This document shows positions 5,726 through 34,177 of a DNA stretch of 39,173 bases, piece by piece. The stretch lies in IMG/VR virus record IMGVR_UViG_2563366802_000014, one strand, 5' to 3'. Both the position numbers and the translations under genes were made by a program. The stretch comes from a virus (taxonomy: Duplodnaviria; Heunggongvirae; Uroviricota; Caudoviricetes). The notes below the pieces were generated by a model, which saw only the letters and a list, made by a program, of their open reading frames with translations, was not told the origin of the DNA and made no database searches. Position 1 is the first letter of the stretch. Each line of letters starts with the position of its first letter.

Positions 5726-5740
5726 TTACCTTTCAGGTAA
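5726..5740. promoter_or_regulatory. Operator-like palindrome TTACCtttcaGGTAA
   Basis: Perfect TTACC-N5-GGTAA inverted repeat about 40 bp upstream of the LexA box. Confidence 0.6.
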
Positions 5741-5777: not shown

Positions 5778-5797
5778 TACTGTATAAATATACAGTT
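5778..5797. promoter_or_regulatory. LexA (SOS) box TACTGTATAAATATACAGTT
   Basis: CTGT-N8-ACAG core at 5780-5795 with AT-rich spacer, close match to the enterobacterial LexA consensus, about 20 bp upstream of the 5818 start codon. Confidence 0.8.
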
Positions 5798-5817: not shown

Positions 5818-6075
5818 ATGCAGCAGTATCACTATCCACTGGAAGAGGGATTTACCGAAAGGATTCACACGCCGGGAGGCGTCAGGTCACTGGTGGAGGG
5901 ATCGCACTTGATGAAATTACTCCGGGATCTCGATAAGGATGGATTTAATGTCGATGGCCCACTTGCCGAACTGACTGCACTGATTAACTACGTCACCAGC
6001 TCACAGATGTCTATGCGGGATCTGCAAACACATCTCGACTATTGTGCCGAACAATTACGAAAACAAACCAGATAA
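5818..6075 (+). CDS. Small antirepressor-domain protein, SOS-controlled candidate antirepressor
   Basis: 85 aa from ATG 5818 (RBS GGAG 9 nt upstream; alternative start 5803); clearly similar to the C-terminal part of the adjacent 231-aa Bro-N protein (shared pattern LLxxL..DG..V.G..AELT ... RD.QTH..Y); preceded by LexA box. Confidence 0.6.
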   Translation: MQQYHYPLEEGFTERIHTPGGVRSLVEGSHLMKLLRDLDKDGFNVDGPLAELTALINYVTSSQMSMRDLQTHLDYCAEQLRKQTR

Positions 6076-6106
6076 GGTTTGTAATTACCAAGTGGAGTGC
6101 TTATAT

Positions 6107-6121
6107 TTACCTTTGCGGTAA
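6107..6121. promoter_or_regulatory. Operator-like palindrome TTACCtttgcGGTAA
   Basis: Perfect copy of the motif, lying in the loop between 7-bp inverted repeats GGAGTGC / GCACTCC. Confidence 0.55.
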
Positions 6122-6212
6122 ATTTACATCGCACTCCTCTTGTGCCATAGTAATCGGGCACTGGCAAAATCCAGTGCCGGGATTGGCGTCCCGGATTACT
6201 AAAAGGCGCATT

Positions 6213-6233
6213 CACCGCGCAAGCGGTTTTTTT
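6213..6233 (+). terminator. Rho-independent terminator after the small antirepressor-domain gene
   Basis: CCGC-GCAA-GCGG hairpin followed by seven T; preceded by a compact multi-hairpin element at 6150-6199. Confidence 0.5.
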
Positions 6234-6390
6234 ATGCGTATAGCACGGCCACATTCGTATTATGGTGGGCTGTGTGGGGGCACCGAAAGGTGCGCCGGGT
6301 CCTTTTAGCCGGTTACGCCAACCCTGCACAGTTCACCACCAACCGATTGGCGTCGGTAGTGGTGATTAACCAGACTAAAAGGTAACCACT

Positions 6391-7086
6391 ATGACAGCTA
6401 CAAAAAGCACGTCCATTTTTTCTTTCGAATCTCAAGCCGATATACGGGTAATCGTCATTAATGGTGAGCCATGGTTTATCGCTTCAGATGTTTGTCGGGC
6501 TATAGGCATAGCAAACCATCGAGATGCTGTTCGAAAACTTGATGATGATGAGAAGGGCGTCGCTTCAACCGACACCCCTGGCGGTGAGCAAGAATCGATC
6601 ATTATCTCCGAGTCAGGCCTCTACACACTGATCCTCCGCTGCCGCGATGCGGTGACACCAGGCACTATCCCCTACCGCTTTCGCAAATGGGTTACAGGTG
6701 AGGTTCTTCCTCAGATCCGCCGCACCGGAAGTTACATTAAAAACTCGCTCCCGCAGGAAGAACGCATAAAGATGGTTGCCGACCAGGTAGCCAACGCCAC
6801 GGCGTCAGCAGTAATGCAGGCGATGAAGATAGAGAACAAAACCTACAGCGCCCCGCTGAAGCCCGGCTACCGCAGCCTGATTCACTCGCCGTCTGGTGTT
6901 CTCGGCCTGACGGAAAACTCACTGCTGATGAATCTGCTGAACCAGTTACAGGAAGACGGGCACGACGTATCGGGCGCGGCGGCGGAGCTGACCACCATGT
7001 TTTGCTACATCGTTGGTGTGAGCAAGTGCCTGCGTGATATCCAGACGCACGCGGAGTACATCAACGACAAGGCTGGGTTCTTCTGA
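6391..7086 (+). CDS. Antirepressor, Bro-N domain protein
   Basis: N-terminal segment FSFESQADIRVIVINGEPWFIASDVCRAIG matches the Bro-N / antirepressor domain; C-terminal domain paralogous to the 85-aa protein. Confidence 0.75.
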   Translation: MTATKSTSIFSFESQADIRVIVINGEPWFIASDVCRAIGIANHRDAVRKLDDDEKGVASTDTPGGEQESIIISESGLYTLILRCRDAVTPGTIPYRFRKWVTGEVLPQIRRTGSYIKNSLPQEERIKMVADQVANATASAVMQAMKIENKTYSAPLKPGYRSLIHSPSGVLGLTENSLLMNLLNQLQEDGHDVSGAAAELTTMFCYIVGVSKCLRDIQTHAEYINDKAGFF

Positions 7087-7153
7087 CGGGCGGCGGCACA
7101 GGGACGTGCCTTTAAAATAATCATTGGCGATGTGATGTAGATTCGCGTAATAT

Positions 7154-7168
7154 TACCTTACGGGTAAA
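7154..7168. promoter_or_regulatory. Operator-like palindrome TTACCttacgGGTAA
   Basis: Perfect copy about 20 bp upstream of a -10-like TATATT and the RBS GAGGTG of the 7206 gene. Confidence 0.6.
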
Positions 7169-7205: not shown

Positions 7206-7841
7206 ATGCCACAACAACTGCTGAATCCGGCAAAGGTTACTGAAGTTTTCGCTCATCTGAACGAAACTCCAGACAACCGCGCCCTGTATTCAGAGTTAGT
7301 GAACGGCAACGATGTCACATCTGATGTCAAAGGCGTTTCTCTGGCTCCTGGATACCGCGTTGTCCGTGTAGACGATCGTAAGAAAGGCGAGATTCCACAG
7401 GCGCACTTCGAACTGGCATTGATAAATGACCTCACCGAAGAGGTAGTGTATTACAATCGTGTCATTATCCAACCTGACAGCTATCTTAACTGCCGACCTG
7501 TCACGCAGATATTGGTATGGAGAACCCAGAAGCCTAAGCATCGTGCTGTGCTTCATGATTTCGCCGGCATCATCTTCATGAACTACCTCTTGGAACGGTA
7601 CGATATCATCGTGTCAGATCGCAACCAGACTCATGAAGGCATGTCGTTCTGGCAGGCTCGCATGTATGACGCACTGGAACTTGGCCTCCACCTCTATGGT
7701 TACGACATGATGACATGCGAGCTGATAGAGATGAATAACGAGGAAGAGCTTGAGAAAGGTGAAACCTGGTTGTGGGGTGATGCGGAAAACTTCCAAAACA
7801 GATTGGCCATAATTTCAAAGCATAAGCTGCCAATAAAATAG
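7206..7841 (+). CDS. Hypothetical protein (211 aa), accessory gene with own operator and terminator
   Basis: ORF from track; strong RBS GAGGTG; acidic soluble protein with no motif I recognise. Confidence 0.6.
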   Translation: MPQQLLNPAKVTEVFAHLNETPDNRALYSELVNGNDVTSDVKGVSLAPGYRVVRVDDRKKGEIPQAHFELALINDLTEEVVYYNRVIIQPDSYLNCRPVTQILVWRTQKPKHRAVLHDFAGIIFMNYLLERYDIIVSDRNQTHEGMSFWQARMYDALELGLHLYGYDMMTCELIEMNNEEELEKGETWLWGDAENFQNRLAIISKHKLPIK

Positions 7842-20528: not shown

Positions 20529-21521
20529 TTACACCACGCGGGCTTCTGTTTCCAGAAGCGCATCAGTTTCACGGATTGGTACACCACGGAATGAAGTCCA
20601 CCACTCGCCTTCTGTCTCTTTTACGCTGATCGCCAGAGATGTTTTCTCCAGAGATTGCAGATCAAGAGCCTGGCCTACAGTGCGGTTCATGTAGAACACC
20701 GGGCGACCCATGCCACGATTTGGAATGCGATGCAGTGCTTTAACCATCAACTTCGCAATATTTGCGGCAGAGGAAGGTTCTGAAAGATTGCTGACATCGA
20801 TGTTTGCAATGCGAACAACATAACGCCAGTCACGCAGAGCAAGTCCGTTGTCCCATTTGTAATGGGTACGGTAGCCTTCGTACTTGCCGCCATTCGCATC
20901 TTCCAGTGTCACCTGGCCTTTATCTTCCATCTGGATGCCAGCCTTCTGCCCTTTCGGGAAGATGCCATGCACGGTGTTTTCGCCCCACACCACTAACCAG
21001 ATTGAGGTGTTATCTGTACCCGTGCCACCAGCATCAATGATGTTCTGAGCATTACCCGCAGACAGGCTGGAATAGCGGGAGGACAGTCCCATAAACTGCT
21101 GAGGGTTAACGCTGGAATCACCATAAAACAGTGTCTGCGCCATCTGCTGATTCATCGCTTCAATAAATGCGCGGTCTTCAGACAGGCGGAATTCGGCGGT
21201 ATTACCGTTCAGATCAGCCAGTGACTTATCGACTTCAGCATAGGTTTCCAGCATGCCAACGGAATCGGTTACCTGCACTGTGGTTGATTTGCTTGGCTGT
21301 ACGCCATAGTTCAGCAAACGCCAGGTAGCTGAAGGTAAACCAGAACGAATGGTGGTTCGGTGTCCGGTAGGAAGGTTCCCTTCGACAAAAGGCATATCCT
21401 GAAGGATCGGGTTAGTTTGACCGAGAAGCTCGATAATCTTATCGACTTTCCCGTTTGGATCGACGCGCTTACCCCAGTCAGCCAGCGTTAGCGCAGTTAA
21501 GCCTTTAACAGCCATTGTCAT
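20529..21521 (-). CDS. Major capsid protein
   Basis: 330-aa ORF directly downstream of the scaffold gene in portal-scaffold-capsid order; followed by a stem-loop at 20493-20512. Confidence 0.7.
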   Translation of the reverse strand: MTMAVKGLTALTLADWGKRVDPNGKVDKIIELLGQTNPILQDMPFVEGNLPTGHRTTIRSGLPSATWRLLNYGVQPSKSTTVQVTDSVGMLETYAEVDKSLADLNGNTAEFRLSEDRAFIEAMNQQMAQTLFYGDSSVNPQQFMGLSSRYSSLSAGNAQNIIDAGGTGTDNTSIWLVVWGENTVHGIFPKGQKAGIQMEDKGQVTLEDANGGKYEGYRTHYKWDNGLALRDWRYVVRIANIDVSNLSEPSSAANIAKLMVKALHRIPNRGMGRPVFYMNRTVGQALDLQSLEKTSLAISVKETEGEWWTSFRGVPIRETDALLETEARVV

Positions 21522-21529
21522 TTCCTCTC

Positions 21530-22225
21530 TTATTTGCCATAGAGCACTTCGGCCGCACTACGCTGGCCTTCATTACCACCGGTGACCATGCCATCTTCAG
21601 ACATCGCCTTTCCGATTTTCACGAACGTTTTGACCAGATCAGGGTGATTACCCAGCCCGGTGGTGTTCAGATATTCTTTGAGTTCAGGTGTCCCGAACTG
21701 GTCAAGCGCACGCTGTGCGGCGCTAAGGTTAGAAATCAACTTGTCGCCACCGATTTCTTTGTCAGCTTTTACATCCGCAGCCCACTGCTCGGTTGTTTTC
21801 TGCCAGGCTTCTGCCTGGCGCTGCTGAACACCTGCCAGAATCTTCGGATAAGCATCAACCAGCTTTTGCGCTTGCTCGTTGGTCAGGTTAAGTTCTCGCG
21901 CCACCGGCTCGAATTCCTTCAACGCTTCTGTATCCAGTTCTACGCCTTCGGCAGCCTGAAACTCGTACTTCTCAGGCGCACCCTCTGGTTTATCGCCGTC
22001 CTTTTTTTCATCCTGCTTATCGTTTTCAGGCTTTTTGTCATCAGCAGGTTTATCGCCATCAGCAACAGGTTGTGGCTTATCACCTTCCTGTTGTGATGGA
22101 TCACCAACTGGAGCAGGGTTATCACCTGCAGGCGCTGACGGTTCTGACGCAGCCGGAGCTGCTCCACCATCGACTGGTTGCTCATTGCAAAGACGGCGAT
22201 ACAGCAAACGCTCAAATAAACTCAT
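21530..22225 (-). CDS. Scaffolding protein
   Basis: Acidic, Pro/Asp/Lys-rich low-complexity N-terminus with helical C-terminus, lying between portal and capsid genes; start set at ATG 22225 with RBS AGGAG. Confidence 0.65.
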   Translation of the reverse strand: MSLFERLLYRRLCNEQPVDGGAAPAASEPSAPAGDNPAPVGDPSQQEGDKPQPVADGDKPADDKKPENDKQDEKKDGDKPEGAPEKYEFQAAEGVELDTEALKEFEPVARELNLTNEQAQKLVDAYPKILAGVQQRQAEAWQKTTEQWAADVKADKEIGGDKLISNLSAAQRALDQFGTPELKEYLNTTGLGNHPDLVKTFVKIGKAMSEDGMVTGGNEGQRSAAEVLYGK

Positions 22226-24421: not shown

Positions 24422-24511
24422 ATCAATGACTCCGTACGCAATTAAATTATTACCAATTTAACCACATATGATTTATTTATCGTAGGTAGTTGACATTTAA
24501 CGCACGAATTA

Positions 24512-24526
24512 TTACCTTTAAGGTAA
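24512..24526. promoter_or_regulatory. Operator-like palindrome TTACCtttaaGGTAA next to a TTGACA -35-like hexamer
   Basis: Perfect copy; TTGACA at 24490-24495 on the plus strand. Confidence 0.55.
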
Positions 24527-24848
24527 CCAAAGAGCTCATTCCGGTTACTAACCTGACTGGCTTGTCGTTAAATTGAACAGGTGGAGTGAGCTTTTATTTT
24601 GAGCAGTACGGCGTATGGCACATGCGACGATAGCGGTCTGGATACGTTTAAGGGGCACCCTCCCTTGCTCGGGCAAACGAACCAGGTAGCCGGAATGTGC
24701 AAGTCGAGCGGTTTTATTCCGCGCACGGGGATACACCATCCCGGCGATTCGGTGTGACGCCTCGGAAGAGGCGAGGGTACAACGATGAGAGCATTTATGG
24801 AGCCGCGACAAAGTGTGGCGCCTTAACAGGCTAAGTGCTCTCAGCGTT

Positions 24849-24925
24849 GTGGCATTAGCTCAGTCGGACAGAGCAACCGCCTTCTAAGCGGTTGGTCGCA
24901 GGTTCGAATCCTGCATGCCACGCCA
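24849..24925 (+). tRNA. tRNA-Arg (anticodon UCU)
   Basis: Hand-folded cloverleaf: 7-bp acceptor stem GTGGCAT/ATGCCAC, D-arm GCTC..GAGC, anticodon stem ACCGC/GCGGT with loop CTTCTAA (anticodon TCT), T-arm GCAGG-TTCGAAT-CCTGC, discriminator G and encoded CCA. Confidence 0.85.
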
Positions 24926-27046: not shown

Positions 27047-27639
27047 TGATTGCCATCCTGACGTTCTTTCAGTCTCTTCCTGGCTGCCGCTATGCGATCA
27101 GCAATTGTCACATTCACATTAACATCCAGGCGTTCTTTGAATGCGTTGACGTCGACGTGCTTACCAATCAGTTCGAGGTTCTTCACCTTGTCAGGCCATT
27201 TAATTTTTTTGAGGATTGTCTCTATCGAATCCTCGTTCATGTTCATGATGGTCGATGACAGATCAAAGCCGCTAAGCGTAGTGCGCCAGATTTTCGGCCA
27301 CTCTCGGATTGGCTTAAGGCTCCCATCGTCGTTGAGGATGTCGATCACGTCCATCTGGTCGATCTCCACCAGACGCATGAGAACGTAATCAGCACTGACG
27401 CGCATTCGTTTGTTGCGCTCCTCCATCAGCTCGGCAATCCGTTTTTGAATGCGTTCATCGCGCATCATGACACTGGCTTTAACTGCTGCTGTATTTGGGG
27501 AGAATCCTGCGTTAATCGCTGCCTGAGTCTGGTTTTCAGGCGTTTTGATGTATGACTGGCAATAAGCCTCCTGCATTGCTGTTAGTGGCTTAAATTGCGT
27601 TGATTTGCGTTTATAGGTTTTAGGTTCAGCAGGCATCAT
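27043..27639 (-). CDS. Terminase small subunit
   Basis: Resembles small terminase proteins and is translationally coupled to the large subunit; start reassigned to ATG 27639 (MMPAEPKTYKRK) rather than the track start 27717. Confidence 0.75.
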   Translation of the reverse strand: MMPAEPKTYKRKSTQFKPLTAMQEAYCQSYIKTPENQTQAAINAGFSPNTAAVKASVMMRDERIQKRIAELMEERNKRMRVSADYVLMRLVEIDQMDVIDILNDDGSLKPIREWPKIWRTTLSGFDLSSTIMNMNEDSIETILKKIKWPDKVKNLELIGKHVDVNAFKERLDVNVNVTIADRIAAARKRLKERQDGNQ

Positions 27640-27671
27640 AACCACCGTGGTAATAGTTACCGTTGTGGTAA
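27639..27671. promoter_or_regulatory. Two adjacent operator-like sites at the terminase small subunit start
   Basis: TaACCaccgtGGTAA (27639-27653, one mismatch) and perfect TTACCgttgtGGTAA (27657-27671), overlapping the start codon and 5' leader. Confidence 0.55.
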
Positions 27672-30823: not shown

Positions 30824-30900
30824 TTACCCCTGAGGTAATTAAAAACCACATAAGACACGAAATCAATAGATCTTAGAACATTTTATTACCTAGCAGGTAA
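30824..30900. promoter_or_regulatory. Promoter region flanked by two perfect operator-like sites
   Basis: TTACCcctgaGGTAA (30824-30838) overlapping the RBS of the 30820 gene and TTACCtagcaGGTAA (30886-30900); minus-strand TTGATT, 17 bp, TTTAAT promoter-like hexamers between them. Confidence 0.55.
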
Positions 30901-32550: not shown

Positions 32551-32751
32551 TCAGCTTGAATGTTGTGGGGAGGAATTAATCATGATCTGCTTAATCTCTG
32601 CCCTGATACGACGGTTTGATTCCATGGTGCACTCAACACAGTGTCCGTTGTAAACCCAGCGTTCACTGTCATGTCCGTGCTTACATGTTTTTCCGGTGTA
32701 GTAGCGTTTAAGTCCGCGCTTTGCGGCATCAATACGTGTAATGATTTCCAT
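32551..32751 (-). CDS. Small Cys/His-rich protein (66 aa), possible zinc-binding regulator
   Basis: Start reassigned to ATG 32751 (MEIITRID); motif CKHGHDSERWVYNGHCVEC; sits where cII-like genes occur in lambdoid maps. Confidence 0.45.
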   Translation of the reverse strand: MEIITRIDAAKRGLKRYYTGKTCKHGHDSERWVYNGHCVECTMESNRRIRAEIKQIMINSSPQHSS

Positions 32752-32831
32752 GGTAAGCCCTGTTATTAGTATTGGGATTACGGTCATTTTGTGCTGACAC
32801 AAAAAAAAGATCAACCAGATTTGGTTTTTTA

Positions 32832-32846
32832 TTACCTTTGAGGTAC
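32832..32846. promoter_or_regulatory. Operator-like site TTACCtttgaGGTAc downstream of the Cro-like gene
   Basis: One mismatch to the motif; adjacent hairpin AGACCGCC..GGCGGTCT. Confidence 0.4.
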
Positions 32847-32901
32847 GAATAGATATGAAAAGACCGCCGGATGGCGGTCTACAGAGGGTTGTAGCTGGAT
32901 A

Positions 32902-33132
32902 TCATGAGTAGAAGAAGTATGCCAGTTCTGCTTTTGAGCGCAGCCATTGTCTTGTTTTACAGGCTTTAAAAAGCCCATTCATCAATACTTTACCTGGCAT
33001 TTTGCGCTTACCTGTTAAGTGAGTCTGGATATAGTGACTCGTCGTTCCGGCTTCCTGTGCGAAGGCTTCACGCTCATCCGGAGTAAGTGCAAGCCAGTGC
33101 TTTTTGAAATCGAAATGTCCGTTATCGCTCAT
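32902..33132 (-). CDS. Cro-like small HTH regulator
   Basis: 76 aa, divergent from the repressor gene across an operator-bearing intergenic region; HTH-like segment AFAQEAGTTSHYIQTHLTGKRK. Confidence 0.55.
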   Translation of the reverse strand: MSDNGHFDFKKHWLALTPDEREAFAQEAGTTSHYIQTHLTGKRKMPGKVLMNGLFKACKTRQWLRSKAELAYFFYS

Positions 33133-33168
33133 AGCTATTGCCTGATATTTATTTCAGATAATAAATAT

Positions 33169-33231
33169 TCACCCATAAGGTAACAAAAATCAAGGATAGT
33201 TACCTATGAGGTGCATTTACCTGTTGGGTAA
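33169..33231. promoter_or_regulatory. Divergent promoter region with three operator-like sites (OR-like)
   Basis: TcACCcataaGGTAA (33169-33183), TTACCtatgaGGTgc (33200-33214) and perfect TTACCtgttgGGTAA (33217-33231) between the Cro-like and repressor genes. Confidence 0.65.
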
Positions 33232-33286
33232 TATTGCTTTAAATTGAATCATCTACTGATTCATATATGAGGCGATTTTTCAGAAA

Positions 33287-33871
33287 ATGAAAAGTATCCA
33301 GGACGTCCGCAGGCAAAATCTCAACGACTTGATCGACCGTGAATTCAATGGTGTTCAGACGCGGATGGCAGAAAAACTTGGAACTCAGGCAAATCTGGTA
33401 AACCGCTGGGCTCTTGGCAAGAAGGTTATCGGCGACCAGGTTGCGCGAAAAATTGAAGCTGCCGCCAATAAACCCCGTAACTGGCTTGATATCGATCGCT
33501 CGCTTTCTCAGGAAGGTTTTCAGCCTGTCGGCCCAAGCGATATTGGTCAGCTGGCAGCTCACAACCTGGAACGCTGGATGAGTGAAAGCCGCGACCTTTC
33601 AACTCAGGGAAAACTTCACCGCGCATCCGGCGTCGCCCAGGTGACAATAAGCCGCCTGTTAAACAATGAGGTCAGCGTTTCCATTTCCACCCTGGAGAAT
33701 GTTGCATCTGCATTCGGGCGTCACGGATATGAACTACTGATTCATCCGCATGACCCTGCAACTATCAACTATGACCGCTCGCGCTACGCATTGTTACCTG
33801 AAACAGAGAAGGCAAAGATCGAAAGTTACATTGAATTTGTCATCAACCAGAACGAAAAAAACAAACAATAA
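33287..33871 (+). CDS. Prophage repressor candidate, tandem-HTH protein without recognisable autocleavage domain
   Basis: N-terminal HTH (QTRMAEKLGTQANLVNRWALGKK) and a second HTH-like segment (ASGVAQVTISRLLNNEVSVSISTLENVASAFG); no Ala-Gly / Ser-Lys peptidase signature seen; divergent from Cro-like gene. Confidence 0.6.
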   Translation: MKSIQDVRRQNLNDLIDREFNGVQTRMAEKLGTQANLVNRWALGKKVIGDQVARKIEAAANKPRNWLDIDRSLSQEGFQPVGPSDIGQLAAHNLERWMSESRDLSTQGKLHRASGVAQVTISRLLNNEVSVSISTLENVASAFGRHGYELLIHPHDPATINYDRSRYALLPETEKAKIESYIEFVINQNEKNKQ

Positions 33872-33891
33872 AATCATATTTTTCAGTAAGT

Positions 33892-33916
33892 AAGCCGCCT
33901 TCTGGCGGCTTTTTTA
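33892..33916 (+). terminator. Rho-independent terminator after the repressor gene
   Basis: Stem AAGCCGCC / GGCGGCTT with loop TTCT followed by a T-run. Confidence 0.7.
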
Positions 33917-33928
33917 TTGCCTATTTGA

Positions 33929-34005
33929 TTACCTAACGGGTAATTTTTTTAACTCATATCTATTGACATCAAACCAGATACGCATAATTATTACCTCAAC
34001 GGTAA
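33929..34005 (+). promoter_or_regulatory. Early-left promoter (PL-like) flanked by two perfect operator-like sites
   Basis: TTACCtaacgGGTAA (33929-33943), TTGACA at 33963-33968, AT-rich -10 region around 33983-33991, TTACCtcaacGGTAA (33991-34005). Confidence 0.6.
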
Positions 34006-34024
34006 CAGACCGAGGTAACAAGTT

Positions 34025-34177
34025 ATGCAGTGGAAAATCATCAACGGTTGGTACTGCGTTACTGCATGCGGATTCATGAGCTGGAAGTTCCGCACCTTAC
34101 AGGAAGGCATTAAGTGGGCTTTCGTCAGCAAAGAAGCTCGCGATGTGGCCAACGATAACGAGATATGGGAGGGCTGA
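34025..34177 (+). CDS. Small ORF (50 aa), first gene of the early-left operon, tentative
   Basis: Hand-translated; RBS GAGGT 9 nt upstream of ATG 34025; below the track cutoff. Confidence 0.3.
   Translation: MQWKIINGWYCVTACGFMSWKFRTLQEGIKWAFVSKEARDVANDNEIWEG

Follow-up and report, generated by a model that had tools for sequence, protein, structure and literature searches.

A putatively SOS-controlled antirepressor predicted to act on an SPC32H-type repressor in the immunity region of a phiV10-like prophage

How a temperate phage might leave lysogeny when its repressor shows no sign of an autocleavage domain is the question raised by positions 32902-34005 of a 39,173-nucleotide stretch of viral DNA, which we refer to as the window. 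The window is approximately 98% identical to phage phiV10 (Uetakevirus), with a DNA identity of 98.3% across 32800-34100. Its source is a phiV10/epsilon15-type temperate podophage (Uetakevirus), a common Escherichia coli prophage, and the immunity region was found in 562 of the 5426 complete E. coli genomes. The phiV10 record already labels the repressor 'two helix-turn-helix motifs; putative repressor'. Operators and a LexA box are not annotated in the phiV10 and ZX5 records, where the small open reading frame that we assign below as ant is called 'hypothetical' (PhiV10p24 in phiV10). A preliminary description of the window had proposed a 194-aa plus-strand ORF encoding the repressor and a divergent 76-aa minus-strand ORF, and an ORF check returned both as described. 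The region contains the following features:

33287..33871, plus strand: rep, encoding a 194-aa prophage repressor with an N-terminal helix-turn-helix (HTH) DNA-binding domain (residues ~1-60), a linker, a second HTH-like domain (~83-151) and a C-terminal strand/helix region (~155-193)
32902..33132, minus strand: Cro-like gene (76 aa), divergent from rep and first of the PR-like operon
33158..33193, minus strand: predicted PR-like promoter, given by the promoter tool as TTGTTA-N17-TATTAT at 33186..33158
33169-33183: operator Oa, TCACCCATAAGGTAA, centre 33176, in the spacer of the PR-like promoter (16.9 bits)
33200-33214: operator Ob, TTACCTATGAGGTGC, centre 33207, the weakest of these operators, kept in position in four phages (10.3 bits)
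33217-33231: operator Oc, TTACCTGTTGGGTAA, centre 33224, nearest rep; its core is perfect and does not vary among four phages (22.8 bits)
33892..33921, plus strand: intrinsic terminator after rep, also annotated in phiV10
33929..34005, plus strand: putative PL-like promoter (TTGACA at 33963-33968, N17, AATTAT at 33986-33991) with enclosing operators
32880..32861, minus strand: terminator after the Cro-like gene
32832-32846: one-mismatch operator ahead of the replication genes (18.0 bits)

Two HTH-like segments had been read from the 33287..33871 protein, and both were recovered by domain searches and structure prediction. Pfam HTH_3 matches two stretches of Rep (best at residues 106-147) and a YdaS-like HTH matches residues 21-61, with the second HTH outscoring the first against Pfam, while the AlphaFold model contains two five-helix XRE-like bundles at residues 4-59 and 83-151. 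A recent tandem duplication within Rep was rejected, as BLAST found no similarity between the N-terminal and C-terminal halves. The same domain search detected no Peptidase_S24 domain in Rep at E ≤ 1, in agreement with the earlier view that the protein has no autocleavage domain. Read directly, the Rep sequence contains no Ala-Gly or Cys-Gly dipeptide, and the C-terminal half of the model consists of the HTH-like domain and a helix.

Rep is 100% identical to the repressors of phiV10 and ZX5, and overexpression of the ZX5 repressor blocked lytic growth, abolished free phage and brought transcripts of the lysis genes down by over 99.9% (PMC9782041). The top Foldseek matches for Rep are 5D50 and 5D4Z, structures of Rep from the Salmonella phage SPC32H. 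At the sequence level, residues 1-190 of Rep align with residues 2-197 of 5D50_A (E = 4e-42), an alignment that spans all three domains (DBD, MDD and CAD), with identities of 42% over the full length, 34% in the middle domain and 43% in the C-terminal part. With no more than 42% identity between the two repressors, the oligomeric state and the Ant interface are extrapolated from the SPC32H homologue. Searches yielded 86 Rep homologues whose precomputed Pfam domains all belong to HTH-type families; 85 of them are at most 214 aa long and the longest has 235 aa. Residues N36, R40 and W41 of the recognition helix do not vary across 23 homologues with 52-88% identity. NCBIfam gave no above-threshold match for Rep, the Cro-like protein, or the Ant and Bro-N proteins introduced below.

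The divergent 76-aa protein matches phrog_35 'transcriptional repressor' (E = 5.6e-13) and is 76% identical to SPC32H_042, with no sequence match in Pfam, NCBIfam or the PDB. Its model has five helices (pLDDT 86), and the nearest folds are the DNA-binding domains of YdaS-N, 434 and P22 c2, at TM scores of 0.55-0.62 but E-values of about 1. Between this gene and rep, the three operator-like sites were found exactly as proposed, with centres 31 and 17 bp apart. They are palindromic, and the positions of Oa, Ob and Oc are conserved in SPC32H, Tyrion and BUCT711. The reading of this locus as an immunity region that carries three OR-like sites is supported. The PR-like promoter may alternatively use a -35 element TTGATT (33193..33188) from the invariant block AAAAATCAA.

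The start of rep had been described as having a weak and distant ribosome-binding site, recalling the leaderless cI message of lambda. The first part of this holds: the sole Shine-Dalgarno-like element is GAGG (33269-33272), which lies 14 nt ahead of the ATG and shows little conservation among relatives. A sigma-70 scan of the plus strand from 33133 to 33287 returned no rep promoter at threshold. TTTACC-N18-TAAATT and an invariant TAATAT (33229-33234), both of them conserved, are weaker candidates. Judged from their positions, these promoter-like elements would yield a leader of approximately 35-46 nt and not a leaderless mRNA.

Beyond rep, the PL-like promoter has an exact operator on either side (33929-33943 and 33991-34005; 62 bp apart), a layout conserved in SPC32H, Tyrion and BUCT711. 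These two operators fall inside the region covered by the preliminary description, which did not list them. Across the whole window, the exact core TTACC-N5-GGTAA occurs ten times, compared to 0.02 expected from shuffles, with a further five near sites; most are at intergenic promoters. A position weight matrix found 15 sites of at least 8 bits, versus about 0.65 in shuffles, and the core ranked first among palindromes in each of the four genomes analysed (the window phage and three relatives). We considered whether the dispersed sites form a repeat family and rejected this, as each site has its own central 5 bp and its own flanks; in addition, the sites are at promoters, and their positions are conserved despite diverged flanking sequence. 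The operators outside the immunity region are:

5726..5740: exact operator upstream of the ant promoter
6079..6121, plus strand: promoter-like TTGTAA-N17-TATATT with an exact operator (6107-6121) that overlaps the end of the -10 element and the +1 position
7153..7167: exact operator upstream of a 211-aa ORF (7206..7841; phrog_1349, function unknown)
24490..24526, plus strand: TTGACA promoter whose -10 element is covered by an exact operator (24512-24526), upstream of tRNA-Arg (24849-24925)
27639..27671, minus strand: an exact and a one-mismatch operator, spaced by 18 bp, at the beginning of a 224-aa ORF and just past a terminator
30824..30900, minus strand: second predicted promoter enclosed by two exact operators (30886-30900 and 30824-30838), 62 bp apart

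The position of the 5726..5740 operator is kept in all five aligned phages, being exact in four and carrying one mismatch (GGTGA) in phiV10. The 30824..30900 promoter lies directly upstream of the DUF1064 gene in the late-early region, and its operator pair with 62-bp spacing is also present in SPC32H, Tyrion and BUCT711.

The partner expected of an SPC32H-type repressor is encoded at the other end of the window, where a small antirepressor gene is followed by two RNA elements and a larger ORF:

5778-5797: predicted LexA (SOS) box, TACTGTATAAATATACAGTT, immediately upstream of the ant ribosome-binding site, with 18 of 20 matches to the 20-nt consensus
5818..6075, plus strand: ant, small antirepressor (85 aa)
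6158-6233, plus strand: isrK-like sRNA (RF01394; 77.9 bits, Rfam gathering score 50)
6258-6343, plus strand: C4 antisense RNA (RF01695; 77.7 bits, Rfam gathering score 45)
6391..7086, plus strand: Bro-N protein, candidate second antirepressor (231 aa)

Ant shares 75 of its 85 residues (88%) with SPC32H Ant (5D50_E, E = 5.6e-47), and its gene is syntenic with that of SPC32H, beside the tail-fibre gene. Pfam returned nothing significant for Ant, the only hit being DUF724 far below the curated cut-off. The predicted LexA box is conserved in five phages, and the window's sole AT-rich exact match to CTGT-N8-ACAG is directly upstream of ant. Two LexA-like sites with one mismatch, at 32947 (Cro-like gene) and 33791 (rep), lack the CTGT half and were rejected; the total number of matches in the window (19, compared to 14 expected) is also no higher than chance would produce. 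With a full-length SPC32H Rep homologue and a cognate ant gene behind a predicted LexA box, the sequence points to the kind of antirepressor-driven switch that had been suggested.

The isrK and C4 elements sit in the leader of the Bro-N gene, whose product ends in 80 residues with homology to Ant (43% identity, E = 2e-16). In ZX5, overexpression of the Bro-N 'anti-repressor' reduced lysogeny approximately 1000-fold (PMC9782041). That study reported spontaneous induction only and tested the Bro-N protein but not the small Ant (PMC9782041).

Taken as a whole, the immunity region very likely works like the SPC32H Rep/Ant switch, in which a non-cleavable repressor is countered by a small SOS-induced antirepressor. 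The N-terminal HTH of Rep would read the 15-bp palindrome TTACC-N5-GGTAA, and Rep would oligomerise via its second HTH-like domain and C-terminal domain. By filling the three sites between rep and the Cro-like gene, the two PL-like sites and about ten other promoter sites, it would keep the prophage silent, and in a Rep without a protease domain cleavage is not expected. Upon DNA damage, LexA would be cleaved and leave the SOS box at 5778-5797, allowing the 85-aa Ant to be made. Ant would then bind the C-terminal region of Rep and take the Rep oligomer off the DNA, derepressing PR, PL and the other operator-controlled promoters. The Bro-N fusion, under a Rep operator and with its isrK and C4 RNAs, probably reinforces or modulates the switch. 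The sequence itself shows the homologies, the operator sites with their statistics and conservation, the LexA box and the lack of an S24 domain. Tetramer binding, the Ant-Rep contact and the lack of cleavage are inferred from the SPC32H homologue, and the assignment of promoters and the part played by the Bro-N fusion are inferences of our own. Speaking against the proposed switch, the perfect and invariant Oc adjoins rep instead of covering PR, which departs from the logic of lambda, and the rep promoter and autoregulation are not accounted for.

The arrangement of divergent rep and Cro-like genes, three operators and a PL-like promoter with operators would also suit a lambda-type switch, in which RecA stimulates repressor self-cleavage and the operators act as OR1-3. 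Nevertheless, this reading is extremely improbable: Rep has neither an S24 domain nor an Ala-Gly or Cys-Gly site, its C-terminal part combines an HTH-like domain with a short module for oligomerisation that has its homologue in 5D4Z, and the 86 homologues carry HTH-type Pfam domains only, all but one being no longer than 214 aa. Another possibility is that Rep is a true tandem-HTH reader, with both HTH domains of one chain (a monomer, or the two domains within a dimer) reading composite operators, as both match HTH_3 and both fold as five-helix XRE-like bundles. We nevertheless find this very unlikely. Palindromic operators with identical half-sites are unexpected for two unrelated heads, which the two halves of Rep appear to be from their lack of BLAST similarity, and the residues of the recognition helix that are invariant across the family lie in the N-terminal domain. 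Moreover, the second HTH-like domain of the SPC32H repressor is described as serving dimerisation (MDD), with tetramerisation and Ant binding assigned to the C-terminal domain that follows it (PMC9986798). The preliminary term 'tandem-HTH' is thus apt for two HTH-like domains but not for two DNA-reading heads, given the role of the second domain in the homologue and the symmetry of the operators.

The remaining alternative concerns the inducer. The ZX5 paper assumed that it is the Bro-N protein (6391..7086), rather than the small Ant, and both the 1000-fold effect of its overexpression on lysogeny (PMC9782041) and its Ant-like C-terminal domain favour this. Conversely, no LexA box was found before 6391..7086, whereas a Rep operator overlaps its promoter and its leader carries the isrK and C4 RNAs, so the gene would be repressed by Rep and unable to start induction. 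The SPC32H annotation contains no Bro-N gene, yet published accounts have the SPC32H switch driven by the small Ant (PMC9638917, PMC9986798), and the Bro-N proteins of ZX5 and phiV10 share only 39% identity (PMC9782041). That Bro-N is the physiological inducer is therefore unlikely, and we favour the small Ant in this role.

If the SPC32H-like switch is adopted, three further features may be read jointly as promoter clamping, shared specificity of operators and Ant, and feed-forward by a second Ant, although we consider this combined reading less likely than not. With approximately 15 operators governed genome-wide, a Rep tetramer would bridge operator pairs on the same face of the DNA: the spacings of 31 bp (OR) and 62 bp (PL-like and DUF1064 promoters) correspond to about three and six helical turns and are conserved in four phages. 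Across the genus, Ant is 60-88% identical and the operator core is conserved, compared to only 42-78% identity for Rep. As the operator core and Ant are far more conserved than Rep, members of the genus might share immunity specificity or cross-induce. The Rep-repressed, C4/isrK-gated second Ant could provide a feed-forward commitment step. Parts of this joint reading may already stand in the two SPC32H papers.

The immunity module of the window is very likely the already known SPC32H Rep/Ant switch, in what is essentially phage phiV10, and the main value of these results is in annotation. In phiV10-type records the predicted SOS-controlled antirepressor is called 'hypothetical' and the operators and LexA box are unlabelled. 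The ZX5 work names Bro-N as the source of antirepression. With the operator map, the Rep regulon and SOS inducibility could be predicted for a very common prophage type associated with E. coli O157.

Among known systems, lambda cI/cro resembles the window in its divergent repressor and cro genes, three intervening operators, PL-like operators and a terminator after the repressor gene. The window differs in that its repressor has no S24 domain, its operators are 15 bp long and spaced 31 and 17 bp from centre to centre, compared to 24 and 23 in lambda, its best operator adjoins rep, and many extra operators are found elsewhere in the genome. The Escherichia phages phiV10 and vB_EcoP_ZX5 have about 98% DNA identity in the region and an identical repressor protein; the antirepressor named in the ZX5 paper is the Bro-N protein (PMC9782041).

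For SPC32H, a tetrameric Rep that binds DNA and an Ant that breaks up the tetramer have been described (PMC9986798, PMC9638917), and a LexA-controlled Ant directed against the repressor is credited to Kim and Ryu 2013 (PMC7380047). This SPC32H switch (Kim and Ryu 2013; Kim et al. 2016; 5D4Z, 5D50) comes from the same genus with the same gene order, and shares with the window a full-length Rep homologue, an 88% identical Ant, a LexA box at the ant promoter, the identical operator core TTACC-N5-GGTAA and equal site spacings of 17 and 62 bp. The differences are a Rep identity of only 42%, the additional gene for a Bro-N-fused Ant domain with isrK/C4 RNAs in the window phage, not annotated in SPC32H, and a third operator downstream of PL in SPC32H that is missing from the window.

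In 2013, Kim and Ryu reportedly described SPC32H Ant as structurally distinct from the Tum and Gifsy antirepressors. Phage 186 (Tum) and the Gifsy/Fels-2 prophages follow a logic like that proposed for the window, namely a non-cleavable repressor that is inactivated by protein-protein contact with a small antirepressor behind an SOS box (PMC7380047, PMC3121763). The P1/P7 immI (c4-icd-ant) and Gifsy-1 isrK-orf45-anrP modules likewise place C4 and isrK upstream of an antirepressor-type gene whose promoter is overlapped by the operator of the main repressor (PMC7313666, PMC4825925). In contrast to these, the module in the window would be accessory to a LexA/Ant switch, and its predicted product is a fusion of Bro-N to an SPC32H-type Ant.

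The window is the genome of a Uetakevirus, an epsilon15-like podophage. In DNA comparisons, the immunity region (32800-34100) shared 98.3% identity with Escherichia phage phiV10 and 95-99% with 16 further E. coli phage records, and of 5426 complete E. coli genomes 562 carried this stretch. The repressor encoded there (Rep, 33287..33871, plus strand, 194 aa) is 100% identical to those of phiV10, whose record labels it 'two helix-turn-helix motifs ... putative repressor', and of vB_EcoP_ZX5. The features first described were confirmed, and their reading is supported once two points are corrected. The switch itself is not new: sequence and annotation exist for a near-identical phage, overexpression experiments have been done with the identical repressor of ZX5, and the mechanism and structures have been solved for a homologue from the same genus, that of Salmonella phage SPC32H. 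What we add is annotation, namely an operator map, the true antirepressor gene ant with its LexA box, and a second Ant gene gated by isrK/C4.

Rep had been proposed to be a tandem-HTH repressor lacking an autocleavage domain. Two HTH-like segments are indeed present: Pfam HTH_3 matched two stretches (best at 106-147), a YdaS-type HTH matched residues 21-61, and an AlphaFold model (23 homologues, pLDDT 78.6) contains two bundles of five helices each (4-59 and 83-151) with a low-confidence linker between them and a long C-terminal helix after the second. The lack of an autocleavage domain also held, as the domain search returned no S24 peptidase match in Rep at E<=1 and its sequence lacks Ala-Gly and Cys-Gly. 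The two segments should not, however, be taken for a pair of DNA-reading heads. The operators are truly palindromic, no sequence similarity was detected between one half of Rep and the other, and the positions that never vary among 23 homologues (52-88% identity) are concentrated in the N-terminal recognition helix (N36, R40, W41). Rep aligned end to end with SPC32H Rep (PDB 5D50 chain A, E=4e-42), identity being 54% for the DNA-binding domain, 34% for the middle domain and 43% for the C-terminal part, and Foldseek ranked 5D50 and 5D4Z (SPC32H Rep 92-198) first. PMC9986798 and PMC9638917 describe three domains in SPC32H Rep: one at the N-terminus for DNA binding, a middle one for dimerisation (MDD), and one at the C-terminus for tetramerisation and Ant binding (CAD). 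DNA is bound by a Rep tetramer, which is broken when an Ant tetramer binds two Rep dimers. In this solved homologue the second HTH-like domain is the dimerisation domain (PMC9986798).

The cognate switch parts lie in the window, 27 kb from the immunity region. The 85-aa ORF 5818..6075 shares 88% identity with SPC32H Ant (5D50_E, E=5.6e-47) and has a good GGAG RBS. Directly upstream, TACTGTATAAATATACAGTT (5778-5797) agrees with the LexA consensus in 18 of 20 bases; no other exact CTGT-N8-ACAG in the window is AT-rich. The window, phiV10, SPC32H, Tyrion and Klebsiella phage BUCT711 all keep the predicted Rep operator, LexA box and RBS in collinear order, with one mismatch (GGTGA) in the phiV10 operator. 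According to PMC7380047, which credits Kim and Ryu 2013, LexA self-cleavage allows Ant to be made, and Ant inhibits the repressor by protein-protein contact. Because all cognate SPC32H parts are encoded in the window, the preliminary description was right to infer an antirepressor-driven switch, and the switch is a known one. In Tyrion (21439-21700, minus strand), gp21 as annotated (54 aa) is an N-terminally truncated call; the full Ant homologue has 86 aa, and its start codon is the conserved ATG that follows the LexA box.

A second candidate antirepressor (6391..7086) carries a Bro-N domain fused to a C-terminal domain that resembles Ant (43% identical, E=2e-16). As its C-terminal 80 residues and Ant are paralogous, the phage has two Ant domains under separate controls, one under LexA and the other under a Rep operator together with RNAs. 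The 270-nt leader of the Bro-N gene holds, back to back, an isrK-like Hfq-binding sRNA (6158-6233; RF01394, 77.9 bits) and a C4 antisense RNA (6258-6343; RF01695, 77.7 bits), both well above the Rfam gathering scores. The phiV10 record labels 6158-6343 only 'terminator' and misc_feature. Overexpression of the ZX5 Bro-N protein lowers lysogeny about 1000-fold (PMC9782041), so a Bro-N antirepressor is plausibly active. The window's protein is nonetheless unlikely to be the induction trigger, since no LexA box precedes its gene and it is itself under Rep control.

Predicted operators and the genes around them were located as follows.

Cro-like gene and Rep operators of the window and its relatives
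32902..33132, minus strand: 76-aa Cro-like ORF, divergent from rep, first gene of a rightward-type operon
33169-33183: operator Oa
33200-33214: operator Ob
33217-33231: operator Oc
33929-34005: exact OL-like pair, 62 bp apart, enclosing a TTGACA-N17-AATTAT promoter that closely follows the rep terminator
30824-30900, minus strand: second exact 62-bp pair, conserved, enclosing the promoter upstream of a DUF1064 gene
32832: operator after the cro terminator
24512: operator at the promoter upstream of tRNA-Arg
27639 and 27657: operators at the start of a 224-aa ORF
7153: exact operator upstream of a 211-aa ORF beside the antirepressor genes
5726: operator upstream of ant
6107: exact operator over the promoter of the Bro-N gene
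33604/33666 and 35972/36034: 62-bp pairs in relative L003
34195/34257 and 37265/37327: 62-bp pairs in Tyrion (L004)
4210/4272 and 7124/7187: pairs in relative L005

Oa, Ob and Oc reproduce exactly the described centre spacings of 31 and 17 bp, and their positions are kept in SPC32H, Tyrion and BUCT711. The window holds 10 copies of the exact core TTACC-N5-GGTAA where 0.02 would be expected, and with a PWM from the four genomes 15 of its sites scored 8 bits or more, compared with about 0.65 in shuffles. This core is identical in all four phages, among which identity is 42-78% for Rep, 54-84% for the Cro-like protein and 60-88% for Ant; this pattern raises the possibility that operator specificity is shared and that Ant proteins may act across the genus. 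The OL-like operator/promoter arrangement is also kept in all four. In each, pairs 62 bp apart (63 bp once) enclose a promoter with a TTGAC/TTGAT -35 at two loci, and this spacing is kept although the intervening sequence is not conserved. The 31-bp (Oa-Ob) and 62-bp spacings, about three and six helical turns, would fit a tetramer on two same-face sites. Between Oa and Ob, AAAAATCAA (33185-33193) is invariant in the four phages despite variable flanks; read on the minus strand as TTGATT, it probably represents the true -35 of the PR-like promoter.

Since most operons in the window have a terminator at the end and their own operator-overlapped promoter at the start, each early or accessory operon appears to be repressed by Rep itself rather than via an antitermination cascade, which is the likely reason that the operators are so widely spread. 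At 24490-24925, a TTGACA promoter with a predicted Rep operator over its -10 is aimed at tRNA-Arg(TCT) (24849-24925), so that this phage tRNA would appear to be under direct repressor control. The 211-aa ORF within 7153-7841 matches phrog_1349 and has no Pfam or NCBIfam match.

The RBS of rep had been called weak and distant, fairly so: the sole SD-like element is a GAGG 14 nt upstream of the ATG, not well conserved among relatives. A promoter scan found no strong promoter for rep. The only conserved candidates, TTTACC-N18-TAAATT and the invariant TAATAT at 33229-33234, would both imply a leader of 35-46 nt, and we found nothing in support of a leaderless message.

The 76-aa protein matches phrog_35 but no curated family. 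Its model is a confident five-helix fold, whose best structural neighbours are the YdaS-N, 434 repressor and P22 c2 DNA-binding domains (TM ~0.6 but E ~1). Based on position, phrog_35 and the model, the Cro-like label is reasonable but unproven. Downstream come a terminator and a small Zn-finger-like ORF, then the O-like and P-like replication genes. The 66-aa ORF after the terminator (32551-32751, minus strand), which carries the Cys/His pattern CKHGH...CVEC, strongly matches phrog_1081 (unannotated function) and weakly an endonuclease VII family (phrog_1035).

The 66-aa ORF occupies the position of lambda cII. Unlike in lambda, the best site, the perfect and invariant Oc, adjoins rep, whereas the site within PR (Oa) is imperfect in all four phages. 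Finally, the isrK/C4/Bro-N cassette is of the same type as those of P1/P7 immI and Gifsy-1 isrK (PMC7313666, PMC4825925).
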